NCBI GenBank assembly: GCA_964016885.1
Contig: CAXHJY010001322.1
Span: forward strand, 1-37,237
DNA from: Eledone cirrhosa
Lineage: Eukaryota
DNA length: 37,237 bases
Direction: 5' to 3'
Made by a program: the position numbers and the translations under genes. Shown here one piece after another: positions 24,974-25,607 of this stretch (positions are counted from its first letter, which is position 1; every line of letters begins with the position of its first letter). The notes beneath the pieces were generated by a model, which made no database searches, was not told the DNA's origin, and saw only the letters and a program-made list of their open reading frames with translations.

Positions 24974-25010
24974 CTTTTGAAAAGCAGAAGAACTGCGAAA
25001 CCGGTTAAGG
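24974..25010 (+). ncRNA. Minimal hammerhead fold, U3-A8 variant, GUU site
   Basis: ctt TTGAAAA gcag-aagaa-ctgc GAAA ccgg TT aag. Confidence 0.6.
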
Positions 25011-25263
25011 AACCAAAGAAATATATATATATTTTTATTAAATAATACTCCAGTTGCATTTTCGATTTCATCTTTTTTTCTTTATACTTTCACGCGTGTA
25101 GGACACCTCGGTTATTTTTCATTTTGTAAAAAAACCTCACTTTCTAATATATAAATATATATATATATATAAATGTATATATAAATATATAAAGAAAAAG
25201 AGATGAAATCGAAAATGCAACTGGAGTCTTATTTTTTTTAAAAATATATATATTTATTTGGTT

Positions 25264-25301
25264 CCTTTACCGGTTTCGCAGTTCTTCTGCTTTTCAAAAG
25301 G
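25264..25301 (-). ncRNA. Minimal hammerhead fold, U3-A8 variant, GUA site
   Basis: Exact reverse complement of 25377-25414. Confidence 0.72.
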
Positions 25302-25376
25302 TGAGTTGAGATGGAGGGTCTGTGGTTTTTCTCACATCAGATGTGAGAAAAACCACAGATCCTCCCTCTCAACTCA

Positions 25377-25414
25377 CCTTTTGAAAAGCAGAAGAACTGC
25401 GAAACCGGTAAAGG
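25377..25414 (+). ncRNA. Minimal hammerhead fold, U3-A8 variant, GUA site
   Basis: cctt TTGAAAA gcag-aagaa-ctgc GAAA ccgg TA aagg; palindromic stem III ACCGGT. Confidence 0.72.
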
Positions 25415-25607
25415 AACCAAATAAATATATATATTTTTTAAAAAAATAAGACTCCAGTTGCATTTTCGATTTCATCTCTTTTTCTTTATACTTTCACTCG
25501 TGTAGGACACCTCGGTTATTTTTCATTTTGTAAAAAAAACCTCACTTTCTAATATAAATATATATATATATAAATATATATATATATAAATATATATATA
25601 TATAAAT

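Follow-up and report, generated by a model that had tools for sequence, protein, structure and literature searches.

Results

A palindrome and three copies of a ribozyme motif

The window analysed here is a 37,237-nt stretch of Eledone cirrhosa DNA (contig CAXHJY010001322.1). It contains three copies of one motif: two on the plus strand, at 24977 (copy 1) and 25381, and one on the minus strand, at 25297. All three copies read UUGAAAA-GCAG-AAGAA-CUGC-GAAA-CCGGU-H. The minus-strand copy and the second plus-strand copy lie in the arms of a palindrome (25188-25490) that is centred on A25339 and has arms of 151 bp with three mismatches (25318/25360, 25312/25366, and 25239/25439). A first-pass annotation, made by a model from the letters of the stretch, had described the same anatomy, with one ribozyme motif per strand, and the sequence confirms it.

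Each copy belongs to a pLTR, in which positions are counted from the G of GCGAAACCGGT (window position 25399). In particular, the left, inverted pLTR arm (25188-25338, minus strand) spans element positions -59 to +90, the short end, and has its hammerhead core at 25297-25291 and its GUA site at 25270-25268; the central A25339 is element position -60 and sits within an imperfect palindrome, CAGATGTG, in which 6 of 8 positions match as a palindrome; and the right pLTR arm (25340-25556, plus strand) spans about -60 to +158, the long end. The minimal type I hammerhead of the right arm (25377-25414, plus strand) comprises stem I (CCUU at 25377-25380 and AAGG at 25411-25414), U3 (25381) and A8 (25386), stem II (25388-25391 and 25397-25400), GAAA (25401-25404), and the palindromic ACCGGU (25404-25409), with cleavage predicted after A25410. 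The tail between the two insertion ends (25491-25556, plus strand), which is 68 nt in a full-length copy, is followed by a (TA)n-type tract (25552-25610) that closes the insertion.

Copy 1 is a 5′-truncated pLTR fragment (24974-25150, plus strand) that starts inside stem I, immediately after a (TA)n run, and has (TA)n at its long (+158) end. Its core is at 24977-24983 and its site is GUU (25004-25006). The CCUU/AAGG stem I that had been assigned to all three copies is present in both arm copies, but copy 1 starts at GCUU and retains 3 bp. Over 113 sites, copy 1 has 8-9 differences from either arm, and the two arms have one between them; the two direct copies are spaced by 404 nt. The (TA)n tract between copy 1 and the left arm (25147-25191) was likely the target of the palindromic insertion, to judge from (TA)n junctions across the family. 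The palindrome was likely built as a single insertion out of two short cDNAs; copy 1 likely inserted earlier, in an event of its own. Because copy 1 is independent and the 404-nt spacing has no second instance among the first 100 matches listed, we read the arrangement as one insertion that landed in the TA tail of another.

The motif is a type I hammerhead with a U3-A8 pair

All three copies have the type I minimal core (U4 G5 A6, A9, G12 A13 A14, A15.1-U16.1, and H17), a Watson-Crick 3-8 pair in the form U3-A8, stems I and II, G10.1-C11.1, and a palindromic stem III, with stem I reduced to 3 bp in copy 1. A 3-bp stem I, with ACUU, also marks a large subfamily and is found in 40 of 87 arms, a sample enriched for older copies. 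Self-cleavage is predicted for the pLTR hammerheads, and the computed monomer fold is weak (-5.8 kcal/mol). An Rfam search of the stretch returned no hammerhead family at any setting, as the first-pass annotation had anticipated for standard models; the only matches were miRNA-like and were caused by the perfect hairpin and the TA runs. Minimal motifs have been published from a custom descriptor, so an Rfam match is a descriptive criterion only.

The annotation had also interpreted U3-A8 as a compensatory swap of the C3-G8 pair, and genome-wide counts bear this out. With a generic pattern that excluded the stem III of this family, matched pairs were found 9,995 times as C3-G8 (control, 79) and 2,125 times as U3-A8 (control, 442), whereas mismatched C3-A8 and U3-G8 were found 151 times (control, 88) and 172 times (control, 94), respectively; these counts are copies from a handful of families rather than independent events, and the U3-A8 count consists in part of stem III mutants of the family described here. 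Across the hammerhead families of this genome, matched 3-8 pairs dominate and mismatched pairs are near background. The matches listed also include at least two additional U3-A8 groups whose stem II differs (GCUU/AAGC and GAUG/CAUC). Older, diverged U3-A8 groups with a longer stem II (GAUG...CAUC) occur one per locus (L097-L102). The variant is in print: natural U3-A8 hammerheads have been reported, with in vitro activity cited (PMC3088659), and U3-A8 has been described in the Cercyon Penelope-like elements (PLEs) of Schistosoma mansoni, with about 1,300 matches (Cervera and De la Pena 2014, PMC4209133). The latter source also describes opposite-strand hammerhead pairs 100-700 bp apart and dimers of low activity.

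Within the present family, 111 copies have a change at position 3 and 51 have one at position 8, and all 24 G8 copies examined retain U3. Uncorrelated changes at the two positions, which the annotation had named as evidence against a compensatory pair, are thus seen, but they are post-insertion decay and are silent on covariation.

The motif belongs to the pLTR of a young Penelope-like element

A 29-letter pattern of the motif has 12,240 exact matches in the 3.0-Gb genome and none when reversed as a control, so that the genomic copy count that had been proposed as a check is not due to chance. A DNA search with the stretch gave 40 scored places; 30 of these were examined, and many of them share sequence upstream of 25339; at L028, this shared upstream sequence leads to a GIY-YIG domain preceded by a CGRSNCGTC Zn-linker. 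Three near-complete elements, two intact (L103 and L104) and one with a broken ORF2 (L031), have the same order of parts: a hammerhead-bearing pLTR, a 409-aa ORF1 frame, an overlapping 775-aa ORF2 frame, a 3′ UTR of about 1 kb, and a second hammerhead-bearing pLTR. Pfam matches on L031 and L103 place GIY-YIG, above cut-off, C-terminal to RVT_1 (E value 5e-6, slightly under the curated cut-off), the domain order of EN+ PLEs, and the inverted, 5′-truncated copy with a tail at one end is a further EN+ PLE feature. The strict motif lies 891-1,360 nt (about 1,050 nt) past the endonuclease stop in 28 of 30 endonuclease loci, and the 29th has one stem II change. The first-pass annotation did not recognise that the motif comes from a Penelope-like retrotransposon, as part of its pLTR.

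The 150 endonuclease matches that were scored have 98-100% identity, many of them within open 775-aa frames; the family is therefore young. The endonuclease linker (CGRSNCGTC) fits the CX2-5CxxC form, which is common to Neptune and Nematis (PMC8557442), and the (TA)n ends indicate microsatellite targeting. From linker and target preference, rather than from a tree, the family is likely a Neptune-type PLE. A PDB search with ORF2 gave no match. At the ORF1/ORF2 overlap, a U-UUU-UUA heptamer followed by a modest hairpin is conserved in the three near-complete elements (L103:1871-1958, L104, and L031), and ORF2 has no Met ahead of its conserved N-terminal motifs; the overlap is likely a -1 programmed frameshift, judging by these sequence features. 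An ORF1 separable by frameshift is noted for some PLEs in a figure legend (PMC8557442). The literature searched on octopus Penelope hammerheads contains nothing on this family, which may already be catalogued in Repbase or Dfam.

We consider it highly probable that the stretch holds three pLTR copies of a young PLE, likely of the Neptune type, with about 12,000 copies and predicted U3-A8 hammerheads, two of them in a palindrome that is likely one two-cDNA insertion and the third in a likely separate, older one.

Insertions have two fixed end positions and occur in head-to-head pairs

Insertions of the family end at one of two fixed positions, +90 or +158, which are 68 nt apart and each lie on a TATA that merges into the target (TA)n. 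In the intact element L103, the corresponding last matching bases are 669 and 737, and the ATG of ORF1 is at 759, 22 nt past the long end. The full element thus runs past +158 into ORF1, and so both insertion ends are internal to the RNA. Contigs from two public sequencing runs of unrecorded type have loose ends followed by (TA)n at L103 positions 669 and 737.

Inspection by eye of the first 100 matches listed revealed 23 head-to-head pairs within 5 kb, no tail-to-tail pair, and one same-strand pair, 3 kb apart, with none within 1 kb. To classify end types, 81 stretches were scanned and pairs were kept if exactly one arm was detected per strand within 2.5 kb. Among the 38 head-to-head pairs so obtained, 29 have one +90 end and one +158 end, none is short-short or long-long, and nine have an unclassified arm. 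A looser classifier called 4 of 20 centre-selected loci long-long, and two of those four, when remeasured, are long-short. Arms that bear ORF sequence terminate at either site (long end, 15; short end, 10; other, 3; n = 28). The two arms of one pair agree in 48 of 53 comparisons of subfamily-allele sites, compared with 0.49 in shuffles, and none of 10,000 shuffles reaches the observed value. A fixed left/right arm difference, GACCC versus GATCC, that appeared in the first 30 loci was absent from the pattern-list pairs and is a seeding artefact from rare query words. Three head-to-head pairs have an identical rare core change (G8, G3, or C3) in both arms (C4:262303143-262303260, L119; C17:32853224-32853382; and C7:64038881-64039399), which is consistent with one RNA source or with gene conversion.

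The 5′ ends of arms pile up at the position of the palindrome centre: 39 of 87 lie at -65 to -55, and 15 more at -54 to -40. This hot spot near -60 may possibly represent the RNA 5′ end. The exact central junction of the window recurs at 482 loci; among 20 of these, it is found in four allele backgrounds and in both polarities, and the junction therefore forms repeatedly. Eighteen long-short pairs that were not centre-selected (the window excluded) comprise 12 with equal 5′ ends (within 9 nt), three nested pairs, and three non-nested pairs, in which the short-ended arm outreaches its partner on the 5′ side by 11 nt, at least 182 nt, and 458 nt. Since the short-ended arm is the one that extends further 5′, neither arm of a non-nested pair can be a copy of the other. 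Full-frame copies were also inspected for 5′ ends at -60: of 23, 15 lack a 5′ hammerhead contiguous with ORF1 in the sequence examined, one gave no measurement, and none of the seven with a measurable 5′ pLTR starts at -60. No DPE-like motif was found by eye at +28 to +32, and the computed fold has no strong hairpin at -60. A splice or trans-splice acceptor at CAG|ATG was rejected, as the flanks have no common upstream sequence.

Tandem hammerhead arrays and neighbouring repeats

Two other hammerhead families form retrozyme-like tandem arrays. One, with a C3-G8 pair and a 466-469-nt unit, includes an array of 31 consecutive copies at C1:5.738-5.752 Mb (C1:5737600-5753200; L200 and L201), occurs at further loci (L095, L096, L193-L199, and L202), and dominates the listed rows of about 10,000 matches. 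The other, with a U3-A8 pair and a 316-nt unit, is found at C1:62807900-62811000 (L090) and at further loci (L089, L091-L094, and L185-L192), and its extended stem III varies compensatorily (ACAAG/CUUGU versus ACAUG/CAUGU). Arrays of both families are often head to head. Among loci picked from the listings for showing both strands, a short end paired with a long end, both at (TA)n, is seen in 8 of 9 two-arm loci of the 469-nt family, where the two lie 64-72 nt apart, and in 10 of 13 two-arm loci of the 316-nt family. The long end of the 316-nt family is TTCTAAT, as in the Penelope element (five arms), and apart from this shared end no sequence homology was found between the arrays and the PLE.

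The literature searched contains no report of head-to-head retrozymes and nothing, by title, on twin priming in Penelope-like elements. In the portions consulted, the preprint on retrozyme origin (bioRxiv 10.64898/2026.07.22.740005) does not contain 'head-to-head', 'tail', or 'target site', and PMC7229834 does not mention 'U3-A8'.

The window contains further repeats. Adjacent to the palindromic insertion, positions 25608-26298 belong to a repeat with a 584-nt unit (L203-L208), for which 40 scored copies are 96-100% identical and 3,134 candidates were found. It has one fixed end at (TA)n and a variable other end, above unit length, like a product of circular RNA; a GC-rich multi-hairpin segment lies near 25970-26045. 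Neither a hammerhead nor an Rfam family was found in the repeat, which possibly harbours an unrecognised ribozyme. Five copies of a repeat of about 180 nt, partly in 229-nt tandem, lie at 22574-23897, and a 67-nt tandem array lies at 2529-2782.

Discussion

Relation to known elements

The pLTR hammerheads resemble the minimal hammerheads of metazoan PLEs, the Cercyon U3-A8 variant among them, as described in PMC4209133: both are type I, lie in a pLTR, have a short helix I, a palindromic stem III, G10.1-C11.1, and a U3-A8 core, and occur mostly in truncated copies and in opposite-strand pairs 100-700 bp apart. The coding region and insertion anatomy resemble those of Neptune EN+ PLEs (Craig et al. 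2021, PMC8557442), for which a C-terminal GIY-YIG domain after a CX2-5CxxC linker, (TA)n targets, partial tandems, an inverted 5′-truncated copy, and a one-end tail are reported; the tail is 68 nt here, in contrast to the 30-40 nt given there, and the coding region here is split into ORF1 and ORF2 frames that overlap at the heptamer. In the Anolis Poseidon element PAc (Frangieh et al. 2024, PMC11167929), as here, two internal start sites define a tail at the pLTR-ORF junction, targets are AT-rich, and both strands are extended, and the C3-G8 pair is reported to matter for PAc cleavage; the PAc starts lie inside the ORF at sites without homology to the target, whereas the ends here lie on TATA microhomologies upstream of the ATG. 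With non-LTR retrozymes (PMC7229834; bioRxiv 10.64898/2026.07.22.740005), the locus shares a type I hammerhead in a short, non-coding repeat of an animal genome. Unlike a retrozyme, it consists of pLTR remnants from an autonomous element; there is no tandem array of head-to-tail units with complete hammerheads, and the 404-nt interval is not a repeated unit.

Proposed mechanism and alternatives

We tentatively propose, at a little under even likelihood, that the thousands of mini-palindromes record PLE insertion by staggered two-end priming, a strong stop at the 5′ terminus of the RNA, and head-to-head joining, in place of self-priming, and that the 316- and 466-469-nt arrays are retrozymes inserted by Penelope enzymes copying circular RNA. 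The element protein would cut a (TA)n tract on both strands, and the two DNA ends would each prime cDNA synthesis within the pLTR RNA, at +90 for one end and at +158 for the other, with TATA microhomology perhaps helping the priming. Synthesis of both cDNAs would pass the hammerhead, still uncut, and end either at a stop site near -60 or at the 5′ terminus of the RNA, after which the two cDNAs would anneal through CAGATGTG. Purified PLE protein is reported to nick and extend both strands, starting at two internal sites of the RNA that bound the tail; its template is reported to be mainly unprocessed RNA, and its hammerhead to cleave only in the presence of the protein (PMC11167929). An internal promoter has been reported for Drosophila Penelope (PMC2377424). 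The hammerhead likely acts in the transcript of the element itself, where, dimerised through stem III or aided by protein, it would cut and perhaps circularise unit-length RNA. At the present locus it likely has no role, because a read-through RNA would bury it in the 151-bp hairpin.

The main alternative, which we regard as possible but distinctly less probable, is a fold-back, in which one cDNA or an antisense template primes itself at CAGATGTG and resolution by the endonuclease leaves one arm without its tail. A head-to-head pLTR palindrome bearing a tail is described as the typical Penelope structure and has been attributed to self-priming (PMC3846280), and the tail has been ascribed to endonuclease resolution (PMC8557442). 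The shared alleles of paired arms, the equal 5′ ends in 12 of 18 pairs, which count against two-end priming in that a fold-back explains them as well, and the junction on an imperfect palindrome all agree with it. The non-nested pairs, however, are as many as those nested the other way, and these three pairs lead us to favour priming from both target ends, although they are few, one is non-nested by only 11 nt, and they may represent adjacent events or later rearrangements. ORF-bearing arms that terminate at either site, and the many single arms that also end near -60 beside (TA)n without a partner, likewise speak against a fold-back. A plain start at -60 has its own difficulty in the seven full-frame 5′ pLTRs, none of which begins there, unless strand transfer or circular templates extend them. 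That the palindrome, of 370 bp, is a MITE-like non-autonomous unit copied from a single ancestor is very unlikely: an exact central junction common to hundreds of loci and flanking TA runs are what such a unit would have, yet the junction occurs in four subfamily allele backgrounds, of 20 loci, 15 have its CAG-bearing side on the long arm, four have it on the short arm, and one is unclassified, and junction positions are continuous from -20 to beyond -900.

Two further explanations concern the ribozyme itself. We think it unlikely that the hammerhead no longer, or rarely, cleaves and is kept in the pLTR as a structural or protein-binding RNA element. Thousands of cDNAs have crossed the predicted cut, stem I amounts to 3-4 bp, the monomer folds weakly, and cleavage is reported to be dispensable for in vitro insertion by PAc (PMC11167929); on the other side stand the dominance of matched 3-8 pairs across independent families, the compensatory changes in stems II and III, and the reported in vitro activity of U3-A8 ribozymes (PMC3088659). 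The 5′ ends near the cut bear on both views. Extrapolated genome-wide from a hand tally, they number about 75 per base at +8 to +14, which is not clearly above the figure of about 47 at -39 to -19 and is far below the -60 peak. In the tally itself (the first 100 of 561 rows), 28 resemble point or indel mutants and 72 resemble truncations or internal deletions; 14 of these 72 start exactly at +12, compared with 5-8 each at +9, +10, +11, and +13, a weak signal given 11 at +8 and 15 at +14. The idea put forward in the first-pass annotation, that the two direct copies dimerise through stem III and excise an RNA of about 400 nt while the inverted arm serves as an off-switch, is the least probable of all. 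Without the inverted arm, the dimer fold costs 4.5 kcal/mol in silico (-44.3 versus -48.8 kcal/mol for the free fold), and genuine tandem hammerhead arrays (316 and 466-469 nt) do exist in this genome. With the arm, however, the dimer fold of 24960-25430 reaches -180.0 kcal/mol compared with -248.4 kcal/mol for the free fold, a cost of 68 kcal/mol, and the free fold buries the third copy in the hairpin and pairs the downstream flank of copy 1 with the antisense arm. A purpose-built dimer is further contradicted by the divergence, truncated stem I, and independent insertion of copy 1, by an excised piece that would itself carry the arm, and by the arrangement and its spacing being absent among the first 100 matches listed, the tandem arrays belonging to other families.

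Significance

Published precedents exist for U3-A8 hammerheads in the pLTRs of Penelope elements, for opposite-strand pairs, and for head-to-head palindromes of pLTRs. Useful here are a very abundant family and the mechanistic record preserved in its copy population. The family is young, with many intact RT-endonuclease frames and thousands of sharply ended insertions, and these properties make both the formation of PLE inversions and tails and the use of the hammerhead in the cycle testable. The retrozyme-like arrays with matching ends link circular-RNA elements to Penelope enzymes by insertion anatomy, a link that a 2026 preprint argues from co-occurrence and phylogeny (bioRxiv 10.64898/2026.07.22.740005). 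If the proposal is true, the two-end signature on the arrays would be direct structural evidence for Penelope-driven insertion of retrozymes.
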